NCBI GenBank assembly: GCA_963745235.1
Contig: CAVUXE010000035.1
Location: forward strand, 128,001-192,000
DNA from: an uncultured Spirochaetota bacterium
Lineage (GTDB): Bacteria; Spirochaetota; Spirochaetia; SZUA-6; Fen-1364
Direction of reading: 5' to 3'
Length of the DNA: 64,000 bases
Position numbers and translations under genes: made by a program. Below the pieces are notes generated by a model. It searched no databases. It was given only the letters and a program-made list of their open reading frames with translations, and was not told the DNA's origin. Positions 14,370 to 59,701 of this stretch are shown in pieces (positions within the stretch are counted from its first letter, which is position 1; every line of letters begins with the position of its first letter).

Positions 14370-14813
14370 ATGTACAACGTCCTGATACTCTGGGCGCCCG
14401 ATTCCGCCGAAACCCGCAAGGTTGTGGAGGTGGTTCGCGCAGCGTTCAACGAAGGGAAGTACAAAACCACGGTCAAGAAGGCTGATGAGTCGTCAATCGT
14501 TGACATCGCCGCCGCAGACGTCGTCATTTTCGGTCTCCAGAAGTCCTCCGCGGCGGAATTGCCGCCTGAGTACTCCGACCTGATGCGCGTGTTCAAAGGC
14601 GTGACCCTTGCCGGCAGGGCAGCCGGGGTTTTCTCCGTGGGAAGTGAGAAGGCCTCCGCAAAGATAAGAAAATCTCTCAAGGACACTGAAGTCGCGATCT
14701 TCGAAGAGGACCCGCTCTTTTCCAATGAAAAGTCGGAGAAGGTGTCAGAGGTCACCGAGTGGGCCAGAAAGCTTGCGGGGTTTTTCCAGGAAGTGAGGGG
14801 CGCTCGTGAATAG
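14370..14813 (+). CDS. Flavodoxin-like fold protein with degenerate FMN loop
   Basis: VLILW...ETRKVVEVV; DIAAADVVIFG; LAGRAAGVFS; VTEWARKL. Confidence 0.6.
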   Translation: MYNVLILWAPDSAETRKVVEVVRAAFNEGKYKTTVKKADESSIVDIAAADVVIFGLQKSSAAELPPEYSDLMRVFKGVTLAGRAAGVFSVGSEKASAKIRKSLKDTEVAIFEEDPLFSNEKSEKVSEVTEWARKLAGFFQEVRGARE

Positions 14814-15339: not shown

Positions 15340-15348
15340 CGTCCGAGC

Positions 15349-41968: not shown

Positions 41969-43627
41969 TCACGTCCCGTTTGATCCCTTCAGCCTCCGAT
42001 AGCGGCGGATCAGCGCGTTGGTGGAGCTGTCGTGCGACAGGGCAGGGTCACTCCTGCTCTCGAGCTCGGGGACGATTTTCTTTGCCAGGACCTTGCCGAG
42101 CTCGACGCCCCACTGGTCGAAGGAGTCAATGCTCCAGATCGTCCCCTGCGTGAATACGCTGTGCTCGTACAGGGAAACCAGGAGCCCCAGTGTCTCCGGC
42201 GTCAACCGTTCGGCCAGGATAGTATTGGTGGGACGATTGCCCTCGAAGACCCGATGCGGCGCAAGAGTGCCGTCCGTTCCCTCGGCCTTGACTTCGTCTT
42301 CCGTCTTGCCGAATGCCAGCGCCTCTGTCTGCGCAAACAGATTTGCCATGAGGAGATCATGCTGGTTGCCCACCGGGTTCAAGGTCTTGCAGAAGCCGAT
42401 GAAATCGCACGGGATCAGCTTTGTCCCCTGATGGACGAGCTGATAGAAGGAGTGCTGGCCATTTGTGCCCGGTTCTCCCCAGTAAATGGGGGCCGTCTGA
42501 TAGCTGACGCCCCTGCCGTCAAGGGTGACATGCTTCCCGTTGCTCTCCATTGTCAGCTGCTGCAGGTACGCCGGGAATCGCTTGAGGTACTGGTCGTAGG
42601 GCAGCAGGGCGACGGTCTGGGCATCGAAGAAGTTGTTGTACCAGACCGTGAGCAGGCCCATGAGGACGGGAAGGTTCTTTTCGAATGGCGCCGCGCGGAA
42701 GTGGTCATCCATGGCACGAAAGCCGGAAAGCATCAACCGGAAGTTTTCCGGTCCGATTGCGATCATGGTCGACAGCCCGATGGCTGAGTCCATTGAGTAG
42801 CGCCCGCCCACCCAGTCCCAGAAGCCGAACATGTTTGCCGTGTCGATGCCGAACTTCGCCACCTCCTCCGCATTGGTGGAAACGGCGACAAAGTGCTTTC
42901 GCACGGCTTCCGCGCCGCCAAGCTTGCGCAGGCTCCACGCCCGGGCGGCATGCGCGTTGGTCAACGTTTCCAGGGTCGTGAAAGTCTTTGAGCAGATGAT
43001 GAACAGGGTCTCTTCAGGATCCAGGTCGCGCACTGTTTCAGAAAAGTCAGTGCCATCAACGTTGGAGACAAAGCGGAAGCTCATGTCCCGCCGGCTGTAG
43101 TGACGGAGGGCCTCGTAGGCCATCACGGGGCCAAGGTCCGACCCGCCTATCCCGATATTGACAACGTTGCGGATGCGCTTCCCCGTGTGTCCGCGCCACG
43201 CTCCGTCGCGCACCTGGTCGGCGAAGTCCGCCATCCCGTCAAGCACTGCCCGCACCTCGGGAACCACGTCCACGCCGTCCACCACAATCCGCTCGCCCTC
43301 CCGCGCCCGCAAGGCGGTGTGAAGGACGGCGCGCTTTTCCGTCACGTTGATCTTCTCTCCGCTGAACATCGCTTCCGTGCGCGCGCGAAGGCCGGACTCC
43401 TCCGCAAGTTGCAGCAGCAGCCGGATGGTCTCATCAGTCACCCGGTTCTTGGAGTAGTCGAGGTAGATACCGGCGGCTTCGACCGTGAAGCGCTCGCCTC
43501 GCCGGGGATCTTCCGCAAAGAGCTCGCGCAGGTGCAGCGTTCGCATCTTCCTGGAGTGCGCTTCCAGCGCCTTCCACGCCGGGCGTTCGGTGAGCGGCTG
43601 TATGGGTGCGGATGAGTTGCGGGTCAC
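41969..43627 (-). CDS. pgi: Glucose-6-phosphate isomerase
   Basis: DYSKN; [10 protein letters not shown]; [10 protein letters not shown]; MESNGK; [10 protein letters not shown]. Confidence 0.97.
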
Positions 43628-43816
43628 GGTCACCTCCTCCGGGCCTCCCACCAGGCCCGCTGTCCAGACACAATCTATTGCACAAAAGGTGCCTGCGTCA
43701 AAGCTCGTCAACTGATATTTCAGCCGCCGGCGCCAGCCGTCAGCCGCCCGCCTCCGGCGCTTGCCCGAGGATGTTGCAATTTATGATATTCGGCCCTACA
43801 GAGGAAAGGAGACGCA

Positions 43817-44299
43817 ATGTACAAGACGAAGAACGATCTGCCGGAGAAAGTTCGAGCCGAGATGGTGACGCTTCTGCAGCAGCGGCTCGCTGACTGTATT
43901 GACCTCGTGACACAGGCCAAGCAGGCCCACTGGAACGTCAAGGGACCGAGCTTCATCGCGCTGCATGAGTTGTTCGACGAGGTCTATGCCCACGCGGGTG
44001 ACTCCGCTGACCTGATCGCGGAGCGAATCGTCCAGCTTGGCGCTGTTGCCGAGGGCACCGCGCGTATCGCGGCAAAGCGGTCCGGGCTGGCAGAGTACCC
44101 TCTTGAGATTGCAAACGGCAAAGATCATGTCGAGGCGTTGTCTCGCGCCCTGGCCTACACGGCTGAGAGCATCCGCAGCTCGATCGACCGGGCGGACGAG
44201 ATGGGGGACAAAGGCACGGCCGACATTTTCACGGAGATTGTGAGGAGCCTCGACAAGGACCTGTGGTTTGTCGAGGCGCACCTCCAGGCCGAGCGATAG
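43817..44299 (+). CDS. dps: DNA starvation/stationary phase protection protein
   Basis: KQAHWNVKGPSFIALHELFDE; DLIAERI; DKDLWF. Confidence 0.95.
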   Translation: MYKTKNDLPEKVRAEMVTLLQQRLADCIDLVTQAKQAHWNVKGPSFIALHELFDEVYAHAGDSADLIAERIVQLGAVAEGTARIAAKRSGLAEYPLEIANGKDHVEALSRALAYTAESIRSSIDRADEMGDKGTADIFTEIVRSLDKDLWFVEAHLQAER

Positions 44300-44403
44300 C
44301 CCCCGGGCAGGCGCCGTGCGGGTTCCCCGAAAATCGCCAGGCCGCGGCAGGGAGTGCAGGCGCCGTGGCGCCTCCGGCGGACCGGGGCGCGCGCTCGCGG
44401 ATC

Positions 44404-45357
44404 TCATTTCTTTCGCCGGGACAGGACCGCGGCCAGGATGATGAGACCCTTGATGATCTGCTGGTAGTAGGATTGGACGTTGTACTGGTTGAGGAGGTTG
44501 TCGATGACTCCCAGGATGAGCACTCCCCAGAACGTCCCGATGGCCCCTCCTCCGCCCCCGCCCAGGATGCCGCCGCCGATGACCACAGCCGCGATGGCAT
44601 CCAGCTCAAAGCCCGCACCGAAGCTGGGCTGCGCAATTCCCAGCCGGGAGGAAAGGAGGACTCCTGCCATCGCCGCGAAGAACCCGCACAGGATGTAGGC
44701 AAGGAGCAGGTGTCCCTTGACGTTGATGCCGGCAAGCCGCACGGCTTCCTCGTTGCCGCCGATGGCAACGACGGCCCTGCCCGGAATTGTCCGGTTCAGG
44801 AAGACCCAGATGACGAAGAAGCAGATCACCATGATGACCGACGCGGTGGGCACGGGGCCAATGAATCCGCCGCCAAGAAGCGCTCGGAACGCAGGGTCCA
44901 CCGGTGTCTGCGGGGTTTCCGAGAAGACGTACGTCACGCCTCGAACCACACCCATGGTCGCAAGGGTGACGATGAAAGGCTGCAGCTTGAACCGCGCGAT
45001 AAAGAAGCCGTTTGCAGTGCCAACTGCTATCCCTGCCACGAGGGCCACCAGGATGGCCGCCGGCATGGGCATCTGTTTCTGGAGGCCCGTGGCCATGATC
45101 CCGCACAGCGCGACGGTGGAGCCCACCGACAGGTCGACGCCTCCGGTGAGGATCACCACCAGCATGCCGATGCTGATGAGGCCGTTGGTGACGATCTGGC
45201 GAGAGATGTTGATGAGGTTCCTGGAGGTGAAGAAGGTCTCAGAGACCAGCGAGCTGATGAGGATCAGCACGACGAAGATCCCGACAAAAGCGAAATCCGA
45301 CCAGCGGATCCTCGCCGTTTCCCGCATCCTGTCGACAAATGGAACCGCAGCCTTCAT
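44404..45357 (-). CDS. Monosaccharide ABC permease (RbsC family)
   Basis: GGVDLSVGS; PFIVTLATM; AIGGNEEAVRLAGI; ELDAIAAVVIGG. Confidence 0.93.
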   Translation of the reverse strand: MKAAVPFVDRMRETARIRWSDFAFVGIFVVLILISSLVSETFFTSRNLINISRQIVTNGLISIGMLVVILTGGVDLSVGSTVALCGIMATGLQKQMPMPAAILVALVAGIAVGTANGFFIARFKLQPFIVTLATMGVVRGVTYVFSETPQTPVDPAFRALLGGGFIGPVPTASVIMVICFFVIWVFLNRTIPGRAVVAIGGNEEAVRLAGINVKGHLLLAYILCGFFAAMAGVLLSSRLGIAQPSFGAGFELDAIAAVVIGGGILGGGGGGAIGTFWGVLILGVIDNLLNQYNVQSYYQQIIKGLIILAAVLSRRKK

Positions 45358-46868
45358 GTTTGTCCCCCGCTGTTGATCACGCCTGCCGCGCGCTGGAGCA
45401 GTATTTCCTCGTTCGCTTCTGCGCGGTCCAGGTTTCCTACGAGCCTGCCTTCCCGCATGACGAGAATCCGGTCACTCATTCCCAGGACCTCGGGCATCTC
45501 TGATGAGATGAGCAGCACGCCCACTCCTGTTTCGACCAGGCTGTTGATGAGGTGGTAGATTTCCACCTTCGCGCCGATGTCCACCCCGCGGGTGGGCTCG
45601 TCAAGGAGAAGCACCTTGGGCTGCGAAAGGAGCCACTTGGCAAGCACCACCTTCTGCTGGTTTCCTCCGCTCAACGTCCGCACGGATCTGCCGAGAGCCG
45701 CCGTCCGCACGGCCAGCGCATCCACCTTTTCCTGCACAAGGACCGTCTGCCGCGCGGTGTCCAGGAACATGCCGTGGCCCATGCGGGGAAGGGAGGCAAG
45801 GCTCACGTTGTCGCGGACCGAGCAGCTCATCACCAGGCCGTCCCGCTTGCGGTCCTCCGTCACCAGGGAGACCCCCGCGTTCACCGCGTCCCGGGGGGAC
45901 CGCAGCCGCACGGGCTTCCCCTGGACGCTGATGCGTCCCGAGGTTGCCGGCTCCGCGCCGAAGATGCTCCTCGCAACCGCTGTCCTCCCGCTTCCGACGA
46001 GCCCGAACATGCCAACCACCTCACCGCGGCGCACGGAGAAGGTGACTTTTTGAAACTCTCCCTCCCGGCCCAGGTCCTCGACGCAAAGCACCTCTTCTCC
46101 CGGGGGCACGGAGCGCCGGGGATAGATCTCCTCCACCGACCGTCCCACCATCATCCTGATCAGGTCATCCTGGCTCACGGATACGGTGGGCACCGTGCCC
46201 ACCACCTCGCCGTCACGAAGCACCGTGATGCGGTCAGCGATCTCGAAAACCTCTTCCAGGCGATGGGAGATGTACAGCACGAGCGTGCCCTCCGCCTTCA
46301 GGCGGCGGATGAGGGAGAAAAGAAGGGCCAGCTCGTCCTTGGAGAGCACCGCGGAGGGCTCGTCAAGGATGAGAATCCTCGGCTTCTCCGCCAGCGCCTT
46401 GGCGATCTCCACGACCTGCTGGTGGGATACGCTGAGCCGCGAGACCCGTGTGCGCGCGTCCAGCGCGGTGAACCCCAGGCCGCTGAGGATTGTGCGGGCC
46501 TGGGAGCGCGCCTGGCGCCAGTGGACCCAGAGGCCGCCGCTGTTCGGCAGCCTTCCCATGAGGATGTTCTCCGCGATGGTCAGGTGCGGCACGAGGCTGA
46601 ACTCCTGGTGGACGGCCCGAATGCCCAGCCTGTTCGCCTGGTGGGGAGTGCTCATTGTCACGGGCGCTCCGCCGATCACGATCCTCCCGGAATCCGGAGT
46701 GACTGCTCCCGAGAGGACATTCATCAGGGTCGACTTGCCCGCGCCGTTCTCTCCGACAAGGGCGTGGATCTCCCCGATGGATGCGGACATGCTCACGTCC
46801 CGGAGGGCCACGGTGCCTCCGAATCTTTTGTAGATGCTCTGCATGGACAAGAAGCAATCACTGCTCAT
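45354..46868 (-). CDS. Monosaccharide ABC ATP-binding protein, tandem NBD (RbsA family)
   Basis: GENGAGKSTL; LDEPSAVL; LSGGNQQKV; DEPTRGVDIGAK. Confidence 0.95.
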   Translation of the reverse strand: MSSDCFLSMQSIYKRFGGTVALRDVSMSASIGEIHALVGENGAGKSTLMNVLSGAVTPDSGRIVIGGAPVTMSTPHQANRLGIRAVHQEFSLVPHLTIAENILMGRLPNSGGLWVHWRQARSQARTILSGLGFTALDARTRVSRLSVSHQQVVEIAKALAEKPRILILDEPSAVLSKDELALLFSLIRRLKAEGTLVLYISHRLEEVFEIADRITVLRDGEVVGTVPTVSVSQDDLIRMMVGRSVEEIYPRRSVPPGEEVLCVEDLGREGEFQKVTFSVRRGEVVGMFGLVGSGRTAVARSIFGAEPATSGRISVQGKPVRLRSPRDAVNAGVSLVTEDRKRDGLVMSCSVRDNVSLASLPRMGHGMFLDTARQTVLVQEKVDALAVRTAALGRSVRTLSGGNQQKVVLAKWLLSQPKVLLLDEPTRGVDIGAKVEIYHLINSLVETGVGVLLISSEMPEVLGMSDRILVMREGRLVGNLDRAEANEEILLQRAAGVINSGGQT

Positions 46869-48313
46869 AGGGGTGGCGCGGGGAATGCATTATGGACAAG
46901 GATCACCTTCTGCTCGGTCATCTCGTCAAGCGTATCATGAAGCCCCTCGCGGCCGTACCCGCTCATCTTGGTCCCGCCGAAGGGAAGGTTCTCCGAGCGG
47001 AGGGCCGAGGACCAGTTCACGATGACCCCTCCCACCTCGAGCCGGTCCGCAATCGTGAGGGCACGGGAGATATCACTCGTGAAGACGGCCGCCTGAAGAC
47101 CGAATGAGCTGTCATTTGCCATGGTCACTGCCTCAGCCTCGGTGGAGAAGGGGACCACGGGAGCGACGGGACCGAACGTCTCTTCCCTGAAGAGCGGAAC
47201 GGAGCTGGGCACGTCCGCGAGCACCGTTGGCGTCACGAAGGATCCGCGTCTCTGCCCGCCGAAGAGCAGCCGAGCGCCGGCTTTCACCGCCTCCACGGTG
47301 GCGGCCTCCACTTTCCGGGCGGCTTCCTCGCTGATCAGGGGGCCTACGTCCGTCTCCTCCCGCAGCTGGTCTCCCACGCAAAGCGTCCTTGCCCTGGCGG
47401 AAAGCCGCTCGCAGAAATCTCCGTAGACCCGTCGATCCACGAAGACCCTCTTCACTGCGCAGCAGATCTGGCCGTTGCCCCGGGCCAGGCGGCCCAGGAC
47501 CACGGCCTCCGCCGCTTTCTCCAGGTCCGCGTCCGCGCAGACGATGGTGGCGTCATTCCCTCCGAGCTCGAGGTGGACCTTCTTCAGCGTTTCCGCGCCG
47601 AGCTGTGCCAGACGGATCCCCACCGCCGTGCTCCCCGTGACCGAGACCATGCGCACCACCGGGCTGCGGGCCAGCAGCTCTCCGACCTGCTCCCCCGGCC
47701 CCGTTACCATCTGGTGAGCTCCGCGGGGAAGACCTGCGTCTTCCAGGATGCCGGCGATTTTCAGGAGAGTGAGGGGGCAGGCGCTGGGAGGTTTCGCAAT
47801 CACGGCGTTGCCGGCGGCAAGGGCGGGAGCGGCCTTGTGCGCATACAGCTCCACCGGATAGTTGAAAGGAACGATGGCAGCGATGACGCCCAGCGGCTGG
47901 CGAACGGTCATGGCGAAATGCCTTTCATTGCCGGGCACCGCGTCCATGGGAATCATGCGGCCGAAGATGCGCCTGCCTTCCTCCGCAAACCCCCGGAAGA
48001 TCCGAGCCGTGACGTCCACCTCGTCCCTGGTCTGGCGGATCGGCTTGCCGTTCTCCCGGGCCAGGAGCGTTGCAAGCTCCTCCCTGCGGTCATGGATGAC
48101 ATCCGCGGCCGCGGCCAGGATGGCGGACCGCTTGTGCGCGGGCAGAGCCCGCATGCGCCCGCTGCCCTCCACCGCCGCCTGCAGGGCGCGCTGCACGTCC
48201 GCCGCCGCGGCAACGGGGACGGTGTCGATGGCTTCCGCGGTCCCGGGGTTGCTGACTGTTTGAGTCTTTCCATCTCCAGCGGCCACCCACTGGCCGTCGA
48301 TGAGCATTTTCAT
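46865..48313 (-). CDS. Aldehyde dehydrogenase family protein
   Basis: PFNYP; TGSTAVG; LELGGND; GQICCA; EETFGP. Confidence 0.93.
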   Translation of the reverse strand: MKMLIDGQWVAAGDGKTQTVSNPGTAEAIDTVPVAAAADVQRALQAAVEGSGRMRALPAHKRSAILAAAADVIHDRREELATLLARENGKPIRQTRDEVDVTARIFRGFAEEGRRIFGRMIPMDAVPGNERHFAMTVRQPLGVIAAIVPFNYPVELYAHKAAPALAAGNAVIAKPPSACPLTLLKIAGILEDAGLPRGAHQMVTGPGEQVGELLARSPVVRMVSVTGSTAVGIRLAQLGAETLKKVHLELGGNDATIVCADADLEKAAEAVVLGRLARGNGQICCAVKRVFVDRRVYGDFCERLSARARTLCVGDQLREETDVGPLISEEAARKVEAATVEAVKAGARLLFGGQRRGSFVTPTVLADVPSSVPLFREETFGPVAPVVPFSTEAEAVTMANDSSFGLQAAVFTSDISRALTIADRLEVGGVIVNWSSALRSENLPFGGTKMSGYGREGLHDTLDEMTEQKVILVHNAFPAPPL

Positions 48314-48367: not shown

Positions 48368-49321
48368 CTAAAACACGCTCTCTGGAATGTAGAACCTGGC
48401 CACGTTGTCGATCGTGATCAGAGGCGACGGCAGAACGGTGTCCTTCTCCGACTGCGCGCCCGCCAGGAGAGCCATGAGCCGGGTGAATCCGGCGCGGCCT
48501 ATCTGGTCAGAGCTGTTCAGCCCCGTCGCGGCGTAGTTCGTCTTTTTCATGATCTGTTCCAGTGCAGCCTTCTCGCCGTCCACCCCGCAGATGAAGATCT
48601 GGCTGGTCCGGCCGGCATCACCTATGGCCTTCTGGGCGCCCAGCGCCATGGAGTCATTCTCCGCGAATACGGCGTCAATCTGGTTGTACTTTGCAAGCAA
48701 GTCCTCCATGAGCTTGAACCCGCCGTCTGAGCTCCAGCCGCCGAAGTTGGGCGCCATGACGACCTCTATCTTGCTCTTCTTCACTTCGGAGAGCATGCCG
48801 TTGGTGCGGTCAAGGCCGATGGAGTTGTCGGCAGGCCCCCCGCGCAGCACCACAAGGCGGCCCTTGCCGCCCAGCCGCTTCACGATGTACTCCCCGTCCT
48901 GCTTTCCGATGGCAAGGTTGTCCGGGCCCACCCAGCTCGTGTAGTCCCCGCCTTTGAGCTTGCGGTCGACCAGGACCACGGGCACTCCCGCCTTCTTGAT
49001 TGCGTCCAGAGCCTCTGGAGCCGCCTCGAGCCAGGCGGCGCTTATGATGAGCCCGCTCACGTTCTGCGCAAGCACGTCTTCGACATCCGAGGTCAGCTTC
49101 TGCGCGTCCCCCTTCGCATCAGTGGTGACGAGCTTGATGTTGCCGAAGTGCTCACACTCCTGTTTCACCGCCTGCGACATGCCGATGAAATACGGGCTCG
49201 TGAGCGCCAGGTTCACCATGCCGATCTTGATCTGGCCTTTCCCCTGCGCTGCCGCGGAAGTGGCGGAAAATGCCAGGGCAACCGCGCAAAGAATGAACAC
49301 CAGGAACCGGAGCTTTTTCAT
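48368..49321 (-). CDS. Sugar ABC substrate-binding protein (RbsB-like)
   Basis: Signal peptide; SPYF; VVLVDR; VGPDN; AENDSMALGA; GVDG. Confidence 0.92.
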   Translation of the reverse strand: MKKLRFLVFILCAVALAFSATSAAAQGKGQIKIGMVNLALTSPYFIGMSQAVKQECEHFGNIKLVTTDAKGDAQKLTSDVEDVLAQNVSGLIISAAWLEAAPEALDAIKKAGVPVVLVDRKLKGGDYTSWVGPDNLAIGKQDGEYIVKRLGGKGRLVVLRGGPADNSIGLDRTNGMLSEVKKSKIEVVMAPNFGGWSSDGGFKLMEDLLAKYNQIDAVFAENDSMALGAQKAIGDAGRTSQIFICGVDGEKAALEQIMKKTNYAATGLNSSDQIGRAGFTRLMALLAGAQSEKDTVLPSPLITIDNVARFYIPESVF

Positions 49322-49385: not shown

Positions 49386-49402
49386 TGCATGCTCCGTGCC
49401 AA
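49386..49402 (-). promoter_or_regulatory. Sigma54 promoter of sugar ABC operon
   Basis: TTGGCAC-GGAGC-ATGCA on minus strand, about 65 nt upstream of the start codon. Confidence 0.8.
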
Positions 49403-49485
49403 GGCGGAGGGTCGACAGAAAGCCGGTCGGTGTGTTTTGCAACTTATTGTATCACAGCAGGTTATGCGACGGAATGGAAGAAGCG

Positions 49486-49515
49486 TTGACAGCTGCATCC
49501 AGCCGCGGATATAGT
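49486..49515 (+). promoter_or_regulatory. Sigma70 promoter of regulator pair
   Basis: TTGACA-18 nt-TATAGT. Confidence 0.65.
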
Positions 49516-49551
49516 GAATGTGTAGAATTTACCCAATTCGCGGGAGTCGGC

Positions 49552-50893
49552 TTGAGTAATAATCACGAGCAGCGCGCCGCATCCAATCTGCTCATTGTGG
49601 ACGACAAGGTGAAGCTTTGCCGGAGCCTTGCCCGCAATTTCGAGCACGTGGGGTTTACCACATCCATTGCCACAACGGGGCAGGAAGCCGTTGCGCGGTT
49701 CTCGGCCGCCCGGATGGACGCGGTGCTTCTGGACATCATGCTCGGGGAGGAAAGCGGCATCGACATCCTCACGAAGCTTCTCGCCGTGGACAAGAATGTC
49801 CCCGTGATCATGATCACCGGCTACGCCTCGGTGGACAGCGCGGTGCAATCTCTGAAGCTCGGCGCGTTCGACTACGTGAAGAAGCCGCTGGACTTCGAGG
49901 AGCTCCTGAAGACCGTGGAGAAAGCGTGCGAGTTCTCCCGCCTGCGGGAGGAGAACAGCAAGCTGCGGTCCCGGCTCAAGGAGCTGTCAGCAACCATCGT
50001 TACCCGGGATGCCCGCATGGGGGCACTGATCCGCAAGGTGGAAAAGCTTGCCGCCACCGACCTTCCGCTGCTGATCTGTGGAGAGAGCGGGACGGGGAAA
50101 GAGGTCCTGGCTGACTACGCGCATTCGGCGTCCGCGCGAAGCGCCGCGGCCATGGTGAAGATCAACTGCGTCGCCTTCCCCGAGACGCTTCTCGACAACG
50201 AGCTCTTCGGCCATGAGAAGGGCGCGTACACGGGGGCGGATTCCGTTTTCAAGGGCCTGTTCGAGAAAGCAGACGGGAGCACCCTCTTTCTTGATGAGAT
50301 CGGCGACATGCCGCTCGGCATCCAGGCCAAAATCCTCAGGACGCTGCAGAACAACGAGATCAGGCGGCTGGGAGGAAATGACACCATTCGAGTGAACGTG
50401 CGCTTCATTGCCGCGACGAACAAGGACCTCGCGGAGCTGATCAGGAAGGGCCAGTTCCGGGAGGACCTTTTCTACCGGCTGAACGCCGCGGTTCTTTCCA
50501 TCCCCTCTCTCAGGGAACGCCGCGACGACATCCCGCTCCTCGTGGAGCATTTCCTTCGCGGCTATCCCGTCGCGCAAGGATGTGACCGCCGAGGTGATGG
50601 AAAAGTTCCTCCCGTACGACTGGCCCGGAAACGTTCGGGAGCTGAAGAACGTGGTCAACTACGCGGCGGCAATGTCCTCGGGAGACAGCATCGGGATCGA
50701 GGACCTTCCGGTGCATTTCCTGGAAGGCACGCGCGCCGCGGCCGGCGGGAATATCCGCGAGGACATGGAGAGGGCCCTCATCCTCAAGGTCCTGCAGAGC
50801 ACCAAGTACAACCGTTCGAAGACCGCCGAGCTCCTGATCATGAGCCGCAAGACCCTCTACACCAAGATGGCGAAGTATGGTCTCAACTCCTGA
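49552..50893 (+). CDS. NtrC-family sigma54-dependent response regulator, frameshift near 50570
   Basis: REC (LLIVDD, LLDIML); AAA+ (GESGTGKE, HEKGAYTGA, FLDEIG, FREDLFYRL); second frame WPGNVREL and Fis-type HTH. Confidence 0.92.
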
Positions 50894-52727
50894 GGCGGTT
50901 TCGACGGAGACCGATCTCCTTCGCCTTGCCCACGTGTGCCTGGACTACGGGCAGGTGGAGGCGCTCAAGGATGTCAACCTTGTGCTTCGCGGTTCGACCG
51001 TCCACGCCATCGTAGGTGAGCACGGGGCGGGGAAGTCTTCCCTCGGGATGGTGATCAGCGGCAACGTGCGGCCGCGCCGGGGACACGTGGAGCTGGACAA
51101 CCGGCGCTTCGACTCCCTCACCACCCGCACGGCCCACCGGCTGGGCATCGAGATGGTCTACCAGCAGGTGCAGCTCAACACCTTCTTCACGGTGGCGGAG
51201 AATATCTTCTTCCTGAACAAGTCACTGGCGCGGCGCGGCCTGCTCAGCCAGCGGCGCCTCGCACGCGAGGCCCAGACATTCCTTGACCAGCAAGGCTTCA
51301 ACCTGGACCCGACCGAGGTCGTCAAGAACCTCAACCTCCCCGACCGGGTCCTCATCTCCATCCTTGCGGCTCTGCAGAAACGGCCCCGGCTCCTCATCCT
51401 GGACGAAGCGCTGGAAAAGCTCTCTTCTTCGGATTTGCCGAAAATCATGCGCGCGCTGAACCAGATGAAATCCGAGGGGATGGCAATCCTCTTCATCACG
51501 CACCGCATCGACGACGTGTATGATCTTGCCGACCGGGTGAGCATCGTGAAAAACGGGGAGATCCTGGTGACCGATGATGTCGGACACATCGACAAGATGA
51601 ATCTCCTGCGCCTGACATACACCCAGGTCTACTCCCTGGAAAACGCCGGCAACCGAAAGCGGGAGTTCAACCAGTTCCTCAAGTACAACGAGGCGGTCCT
51701 CCTCAATCTCCCGGTGAACCTCATCGTGGTCGACGGGGAAGAGCGGGTGAAGATCGTGAACGAGCGCTGCAAGGGGTATTTTCACCTTGGGGACGCTCCT
51801 ATCGCCAACCAGCCCCTGGAGAGGCTTCTCGGTGCGGAGAACCAGGAGACCCTCTCGCTCATCCGCGAGGCCTTCCGGTCCGAGGAGGGGAACGCCTTCT
51901 ACCATGTTCCGCTTGCCATCGCGGGGGACGACACCGTGAACAACGTGCGGACGCTTCCGATCTACGACGAGGAGCGGCTCATCGGGAACATCATCATCAT
52001 CGAGGACATCACGGAGTTCGACAAGCTGCAGAAACAGGTCATCCTCTCGGAGAAGCTCGCCTCCGTGGGGCTCCTTGCCGCGGGGGTGGCGCACGAGATC
52101 AACAACCCCCTGGAGATCGTCTACAACTACCTCAAGTACATCAAGTACTCCTTCGATGACGCGAAGCTCCATGAGACGGTGGACGAGCTGCACGAGGAGA
52201 TCACCTACATCGCGGGGATCGTTCGCGACCTCCTGTCCCTCTCCGGCACCGCACAGGTCCAGAGGGAAGGGATCGACATCAACGAGATGATCAGGAGCAC
52301 CGTGGGCCTGCTTCGCCACAGCGCGCACGAGAAGCTCATCACCATGGCATTCGGCTCGCAGGAAAGGGAGCTGACCCTTACGGTCAACCGGAACGAGATC
52401 AAGCAGGTGATCCTCAACCTCGTGAAGAACAGCTTCGAGGCCATGCCGGGCGGCGGGCAGATCAGCATCGAAACCTCGCGGGCGCTGGACGAACGGGGAC
52501 GACCGTGCGCTTCGATCGTGTTCAGCGACACGGGCCCCGGGATACCGGACGCGAACCTCACCAACGTCTTCATCCCTTTCTACTCCACCAGGAAGGGAAA
52601 GGGGGATCACGTCGGGCTTGGTCTTTCCATCTGTTACGGGATCATCAAGCGCCATGACGGGAGCATGAGCGTGAGGAACCTGGAGCGCGCCGGGTGCCGC
52701 TTCACCATACGGCTTCCCCTGCCATGA
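50877..52727 (+). CDS. Fusion: sugar-ABC-type ATPase domain + PAS + NtrB-type histidine kinase, no TM segments
   Basis: GEHGAGKSS, VYQQ, LLILDE, FITHR; PAS (AVLLNLPVNLIVVD...EDITE); AHEINNPL; NLVKNS, DTGPGI, GLGLSI. Confidence 0.9.
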   Translation: MVSTPEAVSTETDLLRLAHVCLDYGQVEALKDVNLVLRGSTVHAIVGEHGAGKSSLGMVISGNVRPRRGHVELDNRRFDSLTTRTAHRLGIEMVYQQVQLNTFFTVAENIFFLNKSLARRGLLSQRRLAREAQTFLDQQGFNLDPTEVVKNLNLPDRVLISILAALQKRPRLLILDEALEKLSSSDLPKIMRALNQMKSEGMAILFITHRIDDVYDLADRVSIVKNGEILVTDDVGHIDKMNLLRLTYTQVYSLENAGNRKREFNQFLKYNEAVLLNLPVNLIVVDGEERVKIVNERCKGYFHLGDAPIANQPLERLLGAENQETLSLIREAFRSEEGNAFYHVPLAIAGDDTVNNVRTLPIYDEERLIGNIIIIEDITEFDKLQKQVILSEKLASVGLLAAGVAHEINNPLEIVYNYLKYIKYSFDDAKLHETVDELHEEITYIAGIVRDLLSLSGTAQVQREGIDINEMIRSTVGLLRHSAHEKLITMAFGSQERELTLTVNRNEIKQVILNLVKNSFEAMPGGGQISIETSRALDERGRPCASIVFSDTGPGIPDANLTNVFIPFYSTRKGKGDHVGLGLSICYGIIKRHDGSMSVRNLERAGCRFTIRLPLP

Positions 52728-52781
52728 GAGAGGCCGCGGCGCCCGTCAAGGAGGACGCCGCGTCTTCCTCTGTTCTCTCTC

Positions 52782-53654
52782 CTAGCGGAACAGCTGCAGG
52801 ACCGTCTGCGGTTTCGTGTTTGCCTGCGCCAGCATGGCGGTTGAGGACTGCACAAGGATGCGGTCCTTCACGAACTCCACCATCTGCGCCGCCATGTCGG
52901 TGTCCCTGATCAGGCTCTCGGCCGCCTGGAGGTTCTCCGCGCCGACAGCCAGCCCCTTCATGGCGTACTCCAGCCTGTTCTGGTAGGCTCCCAGGTCCGC
53001 CCTCTGCTTGTTGACGAGCCTCAGGGCGTGGTCCAGCACCCCGATGGCCGCGTTGGCGTGATCCGGGGAGGACAGGGAGATGAAGGTGGCGTTGGCCGGT
53101 AGGCCGTTGGCTCCCTGGATCCCCAGCCCCTGGGCGGTCATGGTGCCGATGTACACGCGGGTTCTCTGGTCCATGTTGGCCCCGATCTGCAGCCACATGC
53201 TGCCGGTGACCGCGTTCTCTCCCGTGGAGCGGGCGAAACGGCCGGTGAGCATGTTCATGCCGTTGAACTGGGCGTGGGAGGCGATGCGGTTGACCTCTGC
53301 CACGAGGGCGGAAACCTCCACCTGGATCTGCATACGGTCTTCGTCGGAGTAGATGCCGTTGGAGGCCTGCACCGACAGCTCGCGCAGCCTCTGCATGATG
53401 TCCTGGCTCTCCTGGAGGTAGCCTTCCGCGGTCTGGATGAAGGAGATGCCGTTCTGAGCGTTGTTTTCCGCCTGGCGGAGGCCGCGGATCTGGGAACGCA
53501 TCTTCTCCGAGACTGCCAGCCCGGATGCGTCGTCCCCCGCGCGGTTGATGCGCATGCCGGACGACAACTTCTCCATGTCCTTGTCCCCCTGGATGTTATT
53601 GAAGAACAACTGGCGGTCGGCGAAGAGGGCGCTCATGTTGTGATTGATGACCAT
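52782..53654 (-). CDS. flaB: Flagellin core protein (spirochaete FlaB type)
   Basis: MVINHNMSA; [32 protein letters not shown]; [12 protein letters not shown]. Confidence 0.96.
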
Positions 53655-54218: not shown

Positions 54219-55805
54219 TCAGGGCGCTGCCGAGTTGCCGTTGACGAAGTTGTTGTAGTAGTACTCCAGTCCGTCCATGAGGGCCTGCCAGGAAGCTTCT
54301 ATTATGTTCTCATCAACGCCGACGGTATCCCATGACTGTTCGCCGTCCGAGGTCGTGATGAAAACCCGCACACGCGCTGCCGTGGCCCGCTCCGGGTCCA
54401 GCACCCTGACGCGATAGTCGGTGAGCTTCAGCTTCTCAAGGAATGGATGCAGGGGCAGCAGGGCGTCCTTCAGAGCCGCGCTCAAGGTGTCCACCGGACC
54501 GTCACCCACGCCGGCCCCCATCAGGAGGTTCCCGTTCACCCGGACGAAGATCCGGCCCACGCTCTTGGGAGGGGTCCCCCCGGCCTTGTAGTTTTCCAGG
54601 TGGTAGTTGCTGAGCTCGAGCAGAGGCGTGTATGTCTTGAGCACCTTCCTGATCACAAGGTCGAAGGAGGCTTCCGCCGCCTCGTACTCGTAGCCAACCT
54701 CCTCCAGACGCTTCAGCTCGTCCAGCAGCCGGGTGACTTCCTCCGAGTTCTTGTCGAAGTCCCCGTACCGGGCCAGCTTCTTGATGATGGTTGCCTTGCC
54801 GGCAAGCTCGGAAAGGAGCACGCGGCGCTCGTTGCCCACCAGGGCGCCGTCGATGTGCTCCATGAGGTGGGGTGCCTTGCTGATGACGTCAGCGTGCTGG
54901 CCGCCCTTGTGTGAGAAGGCCGCTTCCCCCACGTACGGCCAGCGCTTTTCAGGGATGATGTTCGCCTTCTCCGCCACGAAACGCGAGAGCATGGTGAGGT
55001 GCTTCAGGTTTGCGCACGCGGTGGCTTCCCGCTTGAGCTTGAGGCACAGGGTGGGGATCAGGATGCACAGGTTGAGGTTCCCGCATCTCTCCCCCCAGCC
55101 GTTGATGGTTCCCTGGACATGGATGGACCCTTTCTCCACGGCGACCAGCGCGTTCGCGACTGCATTTCCTGTGTCGTCATGAAAATGGACCCCGATGGGC
55201 CCCAGCTCGGCCATCGGCAGCTCATCCAGGATCCGGGCCACCTCGGAGGGCAGGGTGCCGCCGTTGGTGTCGCACAGCACCAGGCAGTCCGCCCCCGCTG
55301 CCCGCCCCGCTCTCAGCACCCGCAGGGCATAGGCGGGGTCATCCTTGTAGCCGTCGAAGAAGTGCTCCAAGTCGAAGAATACCTCCCGCCCCTCCTTCTT
55401 CAACGTGCTGAGGGAGTCCCCAATCATGGCGAGGTTTTCCTCATCCGTGGTCTGGAGGACCTGCTTCACGTGCGCCCGCCACGTCTTTCCGACAACGATG
55501 ACCGTTGGGGTTTCGGCGTTGAGCAGCGCCGTGACCTGCGGGTCCGAGGCGGCTTTTCCGCCCGGCTTGCGCGTCGACCCGAAGGCGACAACGCGCGCGT
55601 GGCGCAGATTTTCCTTTCTCATGCGCTGGAAGAACTCGGCCTCCTTGCGGTTGGAAAGCGGGAACCCGCCCTCGATGTAGTCGATGCCGAACTCGTCCAT
55701 CGTCAATGCGATCTGGACCTTGTCCTCCAGTGTGTAGTTGATTCCCTGGCCCTGCATGCCGTCACGCAGGGTCGTATCATAGATGTGAACGCGGCTGCCG
55801 CTCAT
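54219..55805 (-). CDS. cimA: Citramalate synthase
   Basis: YDTTLRDGMQG; AFGSTR; CDTNGG; GWGERCGN; AFSHKGGQH; NIIEASWQAL. Confidence 0.9.
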   Translation of the reverse strand: MSGSRVHIYDTTLRDGMQGQGINYTLEDKVQIALTMDEFGIDYIEGGFPLSNRKEAEFFQRMRKENLRHARVVAFGSTRKPGGKAASDPQVTALLNAETPTVIVVGKTWRAHVKQVLQTTDEENLAMIGDSLSTLKKEGREVFFDLEHFFDGYKDDPAYALRVLRAGRAAGADCLVLCDTNGGTLPSEVARILDELPMAELGPIGVHFHDDTGNAVANALVAVEKGSIHVQGTINGWGERCGNLNLCILIPTLCLKLKREATACANLKHLTMLSRFVAEKANIIPEKRWPYVGEAAFSHKGGQHADVISKAPHLMEHIDGALVGNERRVLLSELAGKATIIKKLARYGDFDKNSEEVTRLLDELKRLEEVGYEYEAAEASFDLVIRKVLKTYTPLLELSNYHLENYKAGGTPPKSVGRIFVRVNGNLLMGAGVGDGPVDTLSAALKDALLPLHPFLEKLKLTDYRVRVLDPERATAARVRVFITTSDGEQSWDTVGVDENIIEASWQALMDGLEYYYNNFVNGNSAAP

Positions 55806-55868
55806 CCCGCGCTCCTTCCGTGTCGTGCCAGAAGGTGTGGCATCCATCCTCCTTGTCGCATGATCTCC

Positions 55869-57413
55869 TCAGACAGCATCATCGCCATTCCCGCTCGCCT
55901 TTCGTGCCGCCAGGTACGCTTTCCAGCGATTGAGCGCGTTGACGTACGCCCGCGCGCTCGCCTCCAGGATGTCCGTCGAAGCTCCCCGTCCCACGAACTT
56001 CTTCCCGTCGATCTCAACGGATGTGCTCACCTCTCCGATTGCCTGCTTGCCGGGCGTGACCGCCTGCACGACATACTCCAGCAGCTTCGTGGTGAGCCCC
56101 AGGGACCTGTCGATTGCGTTGAAGATGGCGTCCACGGGTCCGTCCCCGGTTGCGGCCTCTTCGTAGCGCTCACCCCCGGCCACTATCCGCACGGTCGCCG
56201 TCGGCACGGCAAGGTTTCCCGACTGGATGTTGAAGTAGTCCAGGCTGTAGGTCTCCGTCTCATGGCCCAGCTCGTCGGCCACGATGATGTACAGGTCGTC
56301 GTCGTAGACTTCCTTCTTGCGGTCCGCAATGGTCAGGAACCTCTCATACGCCTTTTTCAGCTCCTCCTCGGTCAACCCGATTCCAAGCTCGCCCAGGCGG
56401 TTTCGAAAACCGTGGAGGCCGGAGTGTCTGCCCAGGACCAGCTGGCTGGCGTCCCGGCCGACGGACTCCGGAGTCATGATCTCGTAGGTTTCCCGGTTCT
56501 TCAGAACGCCGTCCTGGTGGATCCCTGACTCGTGGGCGAACGCGTTCTCTCCCGTGATCGGCTTGTTCCGCGGAATGGGGAATCCGATGGTGTTTGCCAG
56601 GAGGCGCGAGCTGTTGTAGATCTGCTTCGTGTTGACCCCCGTTGTGTAGGGAAGCCGGTCCTTGCGGACCGCGAGGGCCATGACGAACTCCTCCAGGGAC
56701 GCATTCCCCGCCCTCTCCCCGATCCCGTTGATGGTCACCTCCACCTGGCGGGCGCCAGCCTGGACGGCGGAGACGGAATTGGCAACCGCGAGACCCAGGT
56801 CGTTGTGGCAGTGGACGGAGACGATCGCCTTCGCGATGTTCGGCGTCCCCTCGAAAATCCGCCTCAGGAACTCGGAAAACTCGTCCGGCACCGCGTACCC
56901 CACGGTATCCGGGATGTTGATGATGGTGGCCCCGGCATCGATGACCTTCTCTATGATCCTGCACAGGAAAGGGACCTCGGATCGCGTGGCGTCCTCGGGG
57001 GAGAACTCGACCTCTGCAACCTTCCTGCGAGCGTGGCGCACCGCGCTCACGGCCATCTCCACCACGTCGTCCGGGTCCTTCCGCAGCTTGAACTTCATGT
57101 GGATGGCGGAGGTCGCAATGAAGGTGTGGATCCGAGGGTGCGCGGCCTCATGGATGGCCTCCACGGCGCTGTCGATGTCCTTCTCCAGGGCGCGGGCAAG
57201 CCCCGCGATGGTGCAGCTTCTCACCTGGCGCGCAATGAGACGGCACCCTTCGAACTGGTGCGGTGAGGAGATGGGGAAACCCGCCTCGATCACGTCCACC
57301 CCGAGGCGTGCGAGCTGCCGGGCGATCTCCAGCTTCTGCTCCACGCTCATGGAGGCGCCCGGTGACTGCTCGCCGTCGCGCAGCGTCGTGTCGAAAATCT
57401 GTACTCTTTCCAT
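55869..57413 (-). CDS. leuA: 2-isopropylmalate synthase
   Basis: FDTTLRDGEQSPG; HCHNDLGLA; GIGERAGN; HESGIHQDG. Confidence 0.95.
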   Translation of the reverse strand: MERVQIFDTTLRDGEQSPGASMSVEQKLEIARQLARLGVDVIEAGFPISSPHQFEGCRLIARQVRSCTIAGLARALEKDIDSAVEAIHEAAHPRIHTFIATSAIHMKFKLRKDPDDVVEMAVSAVRHARRKVAEVEFSPEDATRSEVPFLCRIIEKVIDAGATIINIPDTVGYAVPDEFSEFLRRIFEGTPNIAKAIVSVHCHNDLGLAVANSVSAVQAGARQVEVTINGIGERAGNASLEEFVMALAVRKDRLPYTTGVNTKQIYNSSRLLANTIGFPIPRNKPITGENAFAHESGIHQDGVLKNRETYEIMTPESVGRDASQLVLGRHSGLHGFRNRLGELGIGLTEEELKKAYERFLTIADRKKEVYDDDLYIIVADELGHETETYSLDYFNIQSGNLAVPTATVRIVAGGERYEEAATGDGPVDAIFNAIDRSLGLTTKLLEYVVQAVTPGKQAIGEVSTSVEIDGKKFVGRGASTDILEASARAYVNALNRWKAYLAARKASGNGDDAV

Positions 57414-57967
57414 TACTCTCTCTCCTTCTTCTGACCTGTTCTCCCGCCCCGTGTGGTGCGCCGCGCCGGCCCCGCGCCCGGCAACGGCGTCTTCCTGCTC
57501 CTCTCCAGGGAGACGAGCCCGCTTCTCGCCATCTCCACGAGCCCGTACGGCGTGAGAAGGGCGATGAAATCGTCGATCTTTTCCGCCGAGCCTGTCAGCT
57601 CCAGTGACATGGTGTCGTGCCCGACGTCCATGACCTGGGCCTTGAAGACATCCGCAACCTGGAATATCTCCCCCCTCTGGGAGGGCTTCGCGCTTACCTT
57701 GACCAGCAGGAGCTCCCGGTGCAGCGCGGGAAGCCCGGTCAGGTCCGTCACGCGGATCACGTCGATGAGACGGTTGAGCTGCTTCTTGATCTGCTCAACG
57801 ATGAGATCATCTCCCTGGCATGCCAGGGTGATCCTCGTGACGGTCGGATCAGCCGTCACGCCGGCAGTGATGCTCTCCAGGTTGTAGCCCCTTCCGGAGA
57901 AGAGCCCCGCGATGCGCGCCAGCACGCCCTGCCTGTTTTCAACGAGCATGGAGACAATATGTTTCAT
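57413..57967 (-). CDS. ilvN: Acetolactate synthase small subunit
   Basis: LVENRQGVLARIAGLFSGRGYNLES; EQIKKQLNRLIDV. Confidence 0.95.
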   Translation of the reverse strand: MKHIVSMLVENRQGVLARIAGLFSGRGYNLESITAGVTADPTVTRITLACQGDDLIVEQIKKQLNRLIDVIRVTDLTGLPALHRELLLVKVSAKPSQRGEIFQVADVFKAQVMDVGHDTMSLELTGSAEKIDDFIALLTPYGLVEMARSGLVSLERSRKTPLPGAGPARRTTRGGRTGQKKERE

Positions 57968-57976
57968 GTGTCTGTC

Positions 57977-59701
57977 CTATGCATTCATCATCTCGTCAAT
58001 GCCGGCGCCGGCGGGAACCATGGGCCACACATTTGCTTCCCGCGAAATGTGGAAGTCCAGGAACACGGGCCTGTCAGTCACCCTGGCCGCTTCCTCCAGG
58101 GCAGGGCGGATTTCCTCCGGCAGCGTAACCCTGATTCCTACGGCGCCGTACGCCTGCGCGAGCTTCACGAAATCCGGCGCGTACGGCGGGCAGGCTTTCC
58201 CCGGGTCCGCGCAGTCCGGCGGGCAGTCCACCGCGCGGTCGAGGCAGACCCCGGAGTAGCGCCGCGCGTAGAACGCCTCCTGCCACTGGCGCACCATCCC
58301 GAGATAGCCGTTGTTGAGGATGGCCACGATCACGGGCAGCTTTTCCGCAACCGCCGTGCCGAGCTCCTGGATGTTCATCTGGATGGAGCCGTCACCCGCG
58401 ATGTCGATCACCCGCTTCCCCGGGTTGCCCAGCTGCGCGCCGATTGCCGCGGGGAAGCCGTAGCCCATGGTTCCGAGCCCGCCGGAGGTGAGGAACGTGC
58501 GCGCTTCATGGAAGGTGTAGTACTGCGCGGTCCACATCTGGTTCTGGCCGACCTCCGTCGTGATGACAGCGTCCGGGAACGCTGCGGCTATGGAGCGAAT
58601 GACATGGCTGGGAGAGAGACCGCCGTTGCCGGGGACCTCCGCCAGGGGGTGCGTACGCATCCATTCCTCTGTCTGCGCCTGCCAGTCGCTGATCGAAGGC
58701 GCCGTCACGACGGGAAGGAAGTCTTCCAGGAAGAGTCCTGCGTCCCCGACAATGGGCACCTCCACCTGCACGTTGCGCGAGATGGAGGAGGGGTCGATGT
58801 CCACGTGCACCACCGTGGCGTGCGGGGCGAACTGTTTCAGGTTTCCCGTGGCCCGGTCATCGAAACGGGAGCCGATGGCAAAGAGGAGGTCGCAATTCTG
58901 GACCGCGATGTTGGCCGCGTAGGTGCCGTGCATTCCCAGCATCCCCAGGAACCGTGGATGATCGCTGGGGAGCGTGCCGATCCCCATGAGTGATGCGACA
59001 ACCGGAACCCCCGTGCGGGCAATCAGCTCACGAAACTGCCCGGAGGCGCCGGAGATGTTAATGCCGCCCCCCGCGTAGAAAAGGGGCCGCTTTGCCTCAG
59101 CCAGCACCTGCGCCGCCCTTCGGATCTGCAGGGGATGGCCGCGGTACACGGGATTGTACCCCCGAATGGACACGGACTCCGGGATGGGCTCCGCGGATGC
59201 CTCGGTCAGAACGTCCTTGGGAATGTCCACCAGCACGGGGCCGGGGCGGCCCGTTCGGGCGATGTGGAATGCCTCCCGGAGGATGCGCCCGAGGTCCTTC
59301 CTGTTGCTCACCAGGTAGTTGTGCTTGGTGACCGACCGGGAGATGCCCACGATGTCAGCCTCCTGGAACGCGTCGTTTCCAATCATGTTGCGGGAGACCT
59401 GCCCGGTGATGACCACGAGGGGAACGGAGTCGAAGTTCGCGGTTGCAAGGCCGGTGACCGTGTTCGTTGCTCCCGGACCGCTTGTCACCAGGCAGACTCC
59501 GACTTTTCCCGTGGAGCGGGCGTACCCGTCCGCCGCGTGCACCGCGCCCTGCTCGTGACGGGTGAGGACCAGCCTGATTTCCCTTTCTCCATACAGGGCG
59601 TCGAATGCCGGTATGACGACCCCCCCGGGGAAACCGAAGAGGACCTCCACCTTCTCCGTTTTGAGGGTCTCTACGAGAAGCGAGGCGCCGCTGCGTTTCA
59701 T
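57977..59701 (-). CDS. ilvB: Acetolactate synthase large subunit
   Basis: RHEQGA; TSGPGATN; SGGLGTMG; GDGSIQMN; GMVRQWQ. Confidence 0.96.
   Translation of the reverse strand: MKRSGASLLVETLKTEKVEVLFGFPGGVVIPAFDALYGEREIRLVLTRHEQGAVHAADGYARSTGKVGVCLVTSGPGATNTVTGLATANFDSVPLVVITGQVSRNMIGNDAFQEADIVGISRSVTKHNYLVSNRKDLGRILREAFHIARTGRPGPVLVDIPKDVLTEASAEPIPESVSIRGYNPVYRGHPLQIRRAAQVLAEAKRPLFYAGGGINISGASGQFRELIARTGVPVVASLMGIGTLPSDHPRFLGMLGMHGTYAANIAVQNCDLLFAIGSRFDDRATGNLKQFAPHATVVHVDIDPSSISRNVQVEVPIVGDAGLFLEDFLPVVTAPSISDWQAQTEEWMRTHPLAEVPGNGGLSPSHVIRSIAAAFPDAVITTEVGQNQMWTAQYYTFHEARTFLTSGGLGTMGYGFPAAIGAQLGNPGKRVIDIAGDGSIQMNIQELGTAVAEKLPVIVAILNNGYLGMVRQWQEAFYARRYSGVCLDRAVDCPPDCADPGKACPPYAPDFVKLAQAYGAVGIRVTLPEEIRPALEEAARVTDRPVFLDFHISREANVWPMVPAGAGIDEMMNA

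Follow-up and report, generated by a model that had tools for sequence, protein, structure and literature searches.

We analysed a 64,000-nucleotide stretch of DNA from an uncultured Spirochaetota bacterium (GenBank assembly GCA_963745235.1, contig CAVUXE010000035.1, positions 128,001 to 192,000 of the forward strand), referred to below as the window. The gene under study encodes a 616-aa sensor histidine kinase that begins with the nucleotide-binding domain (NBD) of a transporter of the ATP-binding cassette (ABC) type, and it lies between a sigma-54-dependent response regulator gene, upstream on the same strand, and a flagellin gene, with a divergent sugar importer operon of the CUT2 type beyond the regulator (Table 1). 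Its reading frame is uninterrupted and holds, in this order, an ABC-type NBD, a PAS domain, HisKA and HATPase_c. A preliminary description made from the sequence had read the gene as one open frame encoding a soluble kinase with an NBD1 of the RbsA/MglA type as its input, and both parts of that reading were borne out by the frame and the domain calls given here.

Domains were assigned with Pfam profiles, yielding ABC_tran at residues 30-179 (76.7 bits against a cut-off of 25, E-value 3.4e-21), PAS_4 at residues 277-381 (29.3 bits), HisKA at residues 398-456 (34.3 bits) and HATPase_c at residues 505-615 (78 bits), all four above their curated cut-offs. With the NCBIfam models, residues 14-257 aligned to positions 1-243 of YtfR, AraG, AlsA and XylG, which is the N-terminal NBD of CUT2 ATPases, and residues 268-615 had AtoS as their best match (208.7 bits against a cut-off of 646). 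Since these scores, including that of the YtfR model (160.7 against 850), were far below the cut-offs of all the equivalog models, the protein is none of YtfR, AraG, AlsA, XylG and AtoS. We found no membrane helix in the kinase, because Kyte-Doolittle hydropathy averaged over 19 residues peaked at 1.39, within the DHp helix, whereas the neighbouring permease reached 2.57; the kinase has neither a membrane nor a periplasmic sensor.

An AlphaFold model built on 28 homologues had a mean predicted local distance difference test score (pLDDT) of 77.5 and comprised a confident NBD, a linker of low confidence, the PAS domain, the DHp hairpin and the catalytic domain. Using Foldseek, the C-terminal half was found to resemble PAS/LOV kinases (4GCZ) and the N-terminal part the ABC NBDs of LptB, MJ1267 and the CbiO type, with target TM-scores of up to 0.85. 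The H-box histidine (H406, in AHEINNPL) was invariant in 28 of 28 aligned orthologues, as were N514 and N518 (N box), D551, G553 and G555 (G1 box), F565, P567 and F568 (F box) and G580 and G582 (G2 box). By these sequence marks the protein is a HisKA-type sensor histidine kinase.

In the NBD, all the motifs that the preliminary description had named were present: the Walker A GEHGAGKSS (G47-S55), the Q-loop YQQ (Q96), the Walker B LLILDE with the putative catalytic pair D176-E177 and the H-loop ITHR (H209), to which we add an A-loop at Y24. At the signature position the sequence is LNLPDR and in the D-loop EALEKL, both degenerate as described, so that the domain has neither an LSGGQ signature nor a SALD-type D-loop. 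In its profile match, fold and ATP-site motifs it is nonetheless an ABC NBD. G47-S55, Q96, D176-E177 and H209 were invariant or nearly so in the 28 orthologues. We then compared 55 kinase NBDs with 43 transporter NBD1s. The aromatic A-loop, Walker A, Q96, N109, D176-E177 and H209 were kept in both groups, and in the kinase NBDs the conservation of the aromatic A-loop, Walker A, Q96, D176-E177 and H209 was about 0.7-0.95, with at least 0.9 for Walker A, Q96, D176-E177 and H209. Judged from its residues, the kinase NBD thus appears to keep every ATP-binding and catalytic position, with the signature and the D-loop changed. Positions conserved in transporter NBD1s and relaxed or replaced in kinases were K22, G26, D67, P83, E97, P102 and G113, together with Q158 in the signature, P178 and T179 in the D-loop (these three at 0.79-0.95 in transporter NBD1s and replaced in kinase NBDs) and M247-G249-R250. 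Conserved in kinases only were H49 (GEH against GEN), P170, L179, K181, D212, I238-D239-K240 and Y248-T249-Q250.

To place the domain we inferred a tree from 112 NBD sequences with the quick search of IQ-TREE under LG+G4, in which an NBD2 clade was separated from a clade of NBD1s and kinase NBDs, each with a support of 100. The placement indicates that the kinase NBD is a descendant of the NBD1 half of CUT2 sugar-importer ATPases. Kinase NBDs formed two clades with a support of 100 each, one of 49 rows (clade A) that includes the kinase of the window, the KSB3 loci and the Treponema-labelled loci, and one of 6 rows (clade B) that includes the three other NBD-kinase copies of the same genome. 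The signature is LNLSDR in clade A; clade B keeps an NBD1-like LSxAQQ and a Pro at position 102. The union of both clades was present in the best tree, with a support of only 69. No kinase NBD was sister to NBD1 of its own neighbouring ATPase, and the fusion is therefore old.

Compared with the CUT2 ATPases (TC 3.A.1.2) RbsA, AraG, XylG, MglA, YtfR and AlsA, the kinase NBD shares the A-loop, Walker A, Q-loop, Walker B with the catalytic Glu, and H-loop. These transporters have a tandem NBD1-NBD2 polypeptide of about 500 aa, whereas the kinase has a single NBD and no NBD2, followed instead by PAS and histidine kinase. It also differs from CUT2 NBD1 in three motifs, the family having LNLSDR for LS[VI][AG]xQQ, EALEKL for EPT(S)AL and GEH for GEN.

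For the extent of the family, we sorted the 120 best whole-protein homologues, 118 of which contained PF00005, PF00512 and PF02518 over their full length with 49-98% identity, the remaining two being fragments only 470 and 487 aa long. Where sources were named, they were metagenome-assembled genomes of Spirochaetia, KSB3 bacteria (Moduliflexus and Vecturithrix) and one Desulfomarina record. When only residues 1-265, with the NBD, were searched against 1.84 billion representatives, the best 150 matches comprised 42 clear fusions and 2 more full-length proteins that did not fit the H-box pattern, 91 tandem ATPases (24-33% identity) and 15 fragments or other ABC fusions. These matches held at least 44 full-length clusters at 50% identity and no convincing stand-alone NBD, the short ones mostly stopping within PAS or DHp. 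Homologues that were always two separate genes would have spoken against a fused kinase; the homologues were found fused, and the single split-looking copy in this genome is a 1-nt frameshift (see below). Among 401 sampled genomes of the same phylum, with up to three candidates scored per genome, a match at an E-value of 1e-60 or below was found in 13, from 10 of 153 genera, and the family is therefore patchy within the phylum. Several spirochaete genomes that are small and complete (G094 and G030) have a single module each. The genome of the window (5.85 Mb, 104 contigs, 85.7% complete) has four NBD-kinase copies, the other three being two intact ones at 31-32% identity and a frameshifted one. 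A locus search with two patterns, one of which is common to many kinases, returned 80 loci, 6 of them with full-length relatives.

The family is widespread and apparently unstudied. The preliminary description knew of no characterised example, and likewise no description of an ABC NBD fused to a histidine kinase turned up in the full-text literature, where coverage is thin for subscription journals and most of these lie outside it. Nor did the fusion appear in the accessible portions of a review of protein-activity sensing (PMC6978683), of a review of binding proteins in signalling (PMC8050422) or of the 2005 census of signalling proteins (PMC1183210).

This distribution bears on whether the NBD does anything at all. 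It could be the leftover of a local gene fusion without an input role, the kinase being regulated through PAS only, and the join falls precisely where a tandem ATPase has its NBD1-NBD2 linker, as an accidental fusion of neighbouring genes would give. We consider this very improbable: an NBD with intact ATP-binding motifs has persisted in both deep clades and in several phyla, with members in Spirochaetota, KSB3 and the Desulfomarina record, the family conserves residues of its own (H49, K181, D212, I238-D239-K240 and Y248-T249-Q250), and close relatives include no homologue lacking the NBD, truncated fragments aside.

To check the assembly, positions 49500-52800 were compared with Logan contigs from soil and peat metagenomes, taken from four runs that each belong to a different study. 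The kinase gene had zero inserted or deleted letters in the contigs of all four runs, and the NBD-PAS junction was spanned by record 15 of X2 (51469-51922) and record 29 of X4 (51401-51684). An indel or stop parting the NBD from the kinase, which had been raised as a way in which the fusion could prove false, is accordingly absent from the independent contigs. In the RNA runs X19 and X20, only 0.05 of the sampled words were present. The sole indel over the whole interval was one base left out at 50570/50572, in 4 of 4 runs. By tblastn, residues 3-335 of the regulator of a relative matched in one frame and residues 337-442 in the one that follows, and the second frame holds the AAA+ lid and the Fis-type helix-turn-helix (HTH). 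The extra base probably reflects a mistake in assembly or variation between strains, and not a dead gene. With one extra base near 50570-50572, the regulator truly ends at 50893 and overlaps the start of the kinase by 17 nt; the 139-nt overlap of the kinase with the upstream frame 49396-51015 was rejected as an artefact of that base.

Other apparent splits in this genome were treated in the same way. A paralogous kinase (contig C75, L091 8960-10757) is one gene in two frames by tblastn (residues 2-213, then 214-600), and we rejected it as a natural two-gene form of NBD and kinase in favour of a 1-nt frameshift. Transporter ATPase genes on C9 (L089 4605-6129) and C28 (L090 5658-7165) each run through two or three adjoining frames, and their reading as single-NBD transporter ATPase partners was rejected for frame changes. 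As several genes lie in adjoining frames, the assembly seems indel-prone, and apparent split genes in this genome are not to be trusted.

Table 1. Features of the NBD-kinase gene and of the adjoining regulator and importer genes (positions in the window).
Feature	Position	Strand	Basis or remark
NBD-PAS-HisKA-HATPase_c sensor kinase (P0001), 616 aa	50877..52727	+	Pfam, NCBIfam, homologues, independent contigs
ABC NBD, NBD1 type (residues 11-248)	50907..51620	+	Pfam, NCBIfam, pLDDT about 85-92, tree, motifs
Variable NBD-PAS linker (residues 249-264)	51621..51668	+	pLDDT <50, alignment columns vary
PAS with N-terminal cap helix (residues 265-377)	51669..52007	+	Pfam, model, fold match 4GCZ
DHp/HisKA helices (residues 379-454), putative phospho-acceptor H406 in AHEINNPL	52011..52238	+	Pfam, model, alignment
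HATPase_c catalytic domain (residues 464-614)	52266..52718	+	Pfam, model, alignment
Sigma-54-dependent response regulator (REC, AAA+, HTH)	49552..50893	+	Two frames in assembly; profile matches, tblastn
Sigma-54 -24/-12 promoter motif TGGCACGGAGCATGCA	49386..49401	-	65 nt upstream of binding-protein ATG
Periplasmic sugar-binding protein (Peripla_BP_4)	48368..49321	-	Likely start ATG 49321, after GGGAGGAG ribosome-binding site
Aldehyde dehydrogenase (Aldedh, 525 bits), between binding-protein and ATPase genes	46865..48313	-	Pfam
Tandem CUT2 ATPase (P0122)	45354..46868	-	Profile match, motifs, tree
CUT2 permease (BPD_transp_2, P0123), coupling helix about residues 188-211 (GGNEEAVRLAG)	44404..45357	-	Profile match, prediction

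The regulator comprises REC, a sigma-54 AAA+ domain and HTH_8, the last found in the shifted frame. With this REC/AAA+/Fis-type HTH partner, a -24/-12 motif at the target and rpoN in the genome, the sequence has the parts of a sigma-54 (NtrC-type) two-component system, and we assign it as such.

In the neighbouring importer ATPase, NBD1 has a good Walker A (GENGAGKST), a weak signature (LSVSHQQ) and the H-loop ISHR, and NBD2 has GSGRT, LSGGNQQK and ISSE, with no H-loop His; by these motifs it shows the usual NBD1/NBD2 asymmetry of CUT2 ATPases. The asymmetry suggests one way in which the kinase could be coupled to transport, in which its NBD would pair with NBD2 of the transporter ATPase, whose LSGGNQQK would complete the Walker A site of the kinase NBD, and the kinase would read the ATP cycle of the motor. 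The two sides are complementary, the kinase NBD being NBD1-like with a canonical Walker A, catalytic Glu, H-loop and weak signature, and its kept E177 and H209 suggest that hydrolysis, hence a competent partner signature, still matters. That site is, however, already filled by the covalently tied NBD1 of the tandem ATPase, the D-loop at the NBD-NBD interface is remodelled in the kinase, and the split-looking ATPases on C28 and C9 are frame changes of an indel-prone assembly. We regard this pairing as improbable.

To assess how constant the circuit is, we surveyed 27 kinase loci, of which 4 belong to this genome, 7 lie in six loci of the genome collection and 16 come from 12 other genomes of the phylum; some are kin and so not independent of one another. 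Flanking genes were called by a criterion of G+C content at third codon positions and by tblastn mapping, length-only calling having picked antisense frames in this G+C-rich DNA. The regulator lay directly upstream of the kinase on the same strand in all 27 loci, and binding protein, ATPase and permease were all found within the fetched flank in 25, the binding-protein mapping resting on seven queries. The two others were L103, where the contig ends after the binding protein and permease, and L099 (G143:C31, 3800-15126), the only locus without an adjacent importer. The preliminary description had asked whether full-length homologues exist beside CUT2 sugar ABC operons, and they proved numerous. 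A sigma-54 -24/-12 motif was upstream of the importer operon and facing it in 21 of 26 loci; the pattern had 44 matches in 431 kb on both strands, and the 22 located elsewhere correspond to a density of roughly one in 39 kb of strand. The four paralogous modules in the genome of the window each have their own importer. From gene order and motif placement, control of the divergent CUT2 importer operon by the kinase and regulator pair, from a sigma-54 promoter, is well supported.

The same genome has dozens of tandem CUT2-type ATPase genes, many of 152 matches being open frames of about 500 aa; with four NBD-kinases against dozens of CUT2 ATPases, most CUT2 importers here are regulated in another way. 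At locus L027 (3686-15496), two regulator/NBD-kinase pairs stand back to back, each with a complete CUT2 operon and a sigma-54 motif. Near the module of the KSB3 locus L001, a gene at 13726-16365 (minus strand) encodes an MCPsignal chemoreceptor that itself includes a sugar-binding domain of the Peripla_BP_4 family.

As for what the NBD senses, the reading that we put first, and hold tentatively, is that it docks on the permease of the importer, as the preliminary description had suggested. The kinase dimer would offer two NBDs, one for each coupling helix of the permease homodimer, where they would compete with the motor ATPase. Once a sugar-loaded binding protein docks outside, the two NBDs would close in an ATP-dependent manner, much as they do in any ordinary importer; this closure, or recruitment itself, would switch autophosphorylation at H406, and the phosphorylated regulator would activate the importer operon. 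In every model considered here, the steps from NBD to kinase are inferred.

To evaluate docking, we predicted how NBD residues 11-250, with their own alignment, would combine with a pair of permease chains (alignment of 40). Over three runs the median score came to 0.63, while the best of three controls gave 0.01; in calibration, 58 of 80 solved complexes and 2 of 110 mismatched pairs had attained that mark. The runs agreed in at least 96% of contacts, with a partner pLDDT of at least 82. On the permease, the predicted interface comprised residues 188-211 (GGNEEAVRLAG, the coupling helix) and 268-269, and on the NBD residues 61, 63, 82-84, 87, 95, 99-104, 108, 112-113, 115, 118 and 121-124, of which 95, 99-104, 108 and 112-113 form the Q-loop groove, a canonical placement on the coupling helix. 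No CUT2 transporter title was among the matches listed from a sequence search of solved structures with the NBD or from a fold search, so no solved relative offered contact residues. The pass may be one of mere likeness, because the pair resembles solved NBD-permease complexes of other ABC families. Contact residues of the permease were conserved at 0.94, against 0.79 overall, and the core groove residues L100, F104 and E108 of the NBD at 0.89-0.96 among orthologues.

Several observations weigh against docking. Conservation, in a score that pools buried and surface residues, was lower at the NBD contact positions than in the rest of the domain in the 28 orthologues (0.51 against 0.64; 9907 of 10000 random sets as high or higher) and in the 55 kinase NBDs (0.34 against 0.49; 4995 of 5000 random sets), a deficit larger than at the same positions in the 43 true transporter NBD1s (0.47 against 0.51; 3801 of 5000). 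Both the membrane-domain-facing P83, E97, P102 and G113 and the partner-NBD-facing Q158, P178 and T179 are relaxed in kinases. Every importer-bearing locus keeps a complete ATPase of its own, a competitor for the permease, and the linker that joins NBD and PAS varies in sequence and is modelled with low confidence, which suits rigid signal transmission poorly. The pair at L099 has no transporter within 8 kb and is followed by an arabinose catabolic operon, consisting of a LacI-type regulator, an FGGY kinase (araB), a class II aldolase/epimerase (araD) and L-arabinose isomerase (araA). Finally, the synteny with importers can be explained by the output of the circuit alone. Docking on the permease is therefore favoured by the predicted complex and opposed by the conservation of the NBD contact positions, which falls below that of transporter NBD1s. 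An ATP site that is kept and two interfaces that are remodelled would fit a transporter contact that has changed, perhaps becoming more specific, and would also fit an NBD that has left the transporter cycle.

The latter would make the NBD a nucleotide switch off the transporter, which binds ATP or ADP, may dimerise when ATP is bound and lets the energy state control the kinase; sugar would then be sensed elsewhere, for instance as an imported sugar or metabolite at the cytoplasmic PAS domain, and the transporter would only be the regulated target. We think this account rather unlikely. It suits the ATP-binding core being the best-conserved part of the NBD, the relaxed or replaced membrane-domain and NBD-NBD interface positions, the PAS domain conserved in all members, the flexible linker that leads to it and the absence of an adjacent transporter at L099. 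An energy sensor, on the other hand, needs no link to one type of transporter, which is what 25 of 27 loci and four paralogues each with an importer display, though output wiring could explain this; the NBD-permease prediction passed, and L100, F104 and E108 stay conserved in the groove.

The permease-docking model can be taken further, to an importer that doubles as a transmembrane receptor, in which the two captured NBD1s of the kinase dimer would replace the motor ATPase under the permease dimer and their ATP-dependent closure, on arrival of a sugar-loaded binding protein outside the cell, would activate the kinase. We find this extension doubtful. If true, it would be a receptor built from transporter parts with a dedicated signalling NBD, present across Spirochaetota, KSB3/Moduliflexota and at least one Desulfobacterota record. 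At L099, a sigma-54 motif at 6310 (minus strand) faces a gene for a Big_5 and ice-binding-like protein.

How cytoplasmic kinases learn of substrates outside the cell is a standing question. To our knowledge, the solutions described so far rely on distinct proteins, as in Bce modules, in Pst-PhoU-PhoR and where a binding protein docks onto the periplasmic domain of a kinase. With PAS kinases of the AtoS/NtrB type and their NtrC-type partners, the system shares residues 268-615 and the REC/sigma-54 AAA+/HTH_8 partner; AtoS is membrane-bound and is not known to carry an NBD. In MalK-MalT, the ATPase state of an ABC importer is relayed to the transcription system, and the same holds for PstSCAB-PhoU-PhoR according to the portions of the review available (PMC6978683). 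Both use separate proteins and the working ATPase, whereas the NBD-kinase has an extra, dedicated NBD copy built in. In CbrA and CrbS, an SLC5 symporter domain is fused to the kinase through STAC (PMC5715377, in the part of the text available). As in the NBD-kinase, a piece of a transporter is fused as the kinase input; in CbrA and CrbS that piece is a secondary transporter's membrane permease, and in the NBD-kinase it is the cytoplasmic ATPase domain of a primary transporter of the ABC class.

For the Bce-type modules of Firmicutes (BceAB with BceS), the available excerpts describe a kinase that is thought to read the ABC transporter it induces, by flux sensing (PMC4513084, PMC10314905, PMC6978683). 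Like the NBD-kinase, the kinase of such a module has no sensor of its own. The Bce kinase is a separate two-helix membrane protein on an FtsX-type exporter with a large outer domain, and its regulator is of the OmpR type; the NBD-kinase, by contrast, is soluble with a covalent NBD, its transporter a BPD_transp_2 CUT2 importer with a binding protein and its regulator of the sigma-54 type. By analogy the NBD-kinase system may work like a Bce module, of which it is not a member. It resembles Bce, Pst-PhoU-PhoR, MalK-MalT and CrbS in logic and is a member of none of them.

A kinase with a built-in transporter ATP-binding domain would be a compact coupling of uptake to gene control that can be dissected by genetics. 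The large family, conserved across phyla and with a defined target promoter, makes it a good object of study, which would allow the communication between NBD and permease and the role of the degenerate signature motif to be addressed; it also bears on regulatory specificity in sugar specialists with dozens of CUT2 importers.

Several genes flank the module. A 203-aa frame at 43796-44407 (minus strand) was rejected as a member of the importer operon, being Arg/Pro-rich, without a family match and seemingly spurious; opposite it, at 43817-44299 (plus strand), lies a gene for a ferritin-like protein (Pfam Ferritin, 93.9 bits), and the importer operon therefore ends at the permease. A phosphoglucose isomerase gene follows at 41969-43711 (minus strand). 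On the other side, the flagellin gene directly downstream of the kinase occupies 52782-53654 (minus strand), and 54219-59701 (minus strand) holds two LeuA-like genes and those for the small and large acetolactate synthase subunits, which are ordinary neighbours outside the module.

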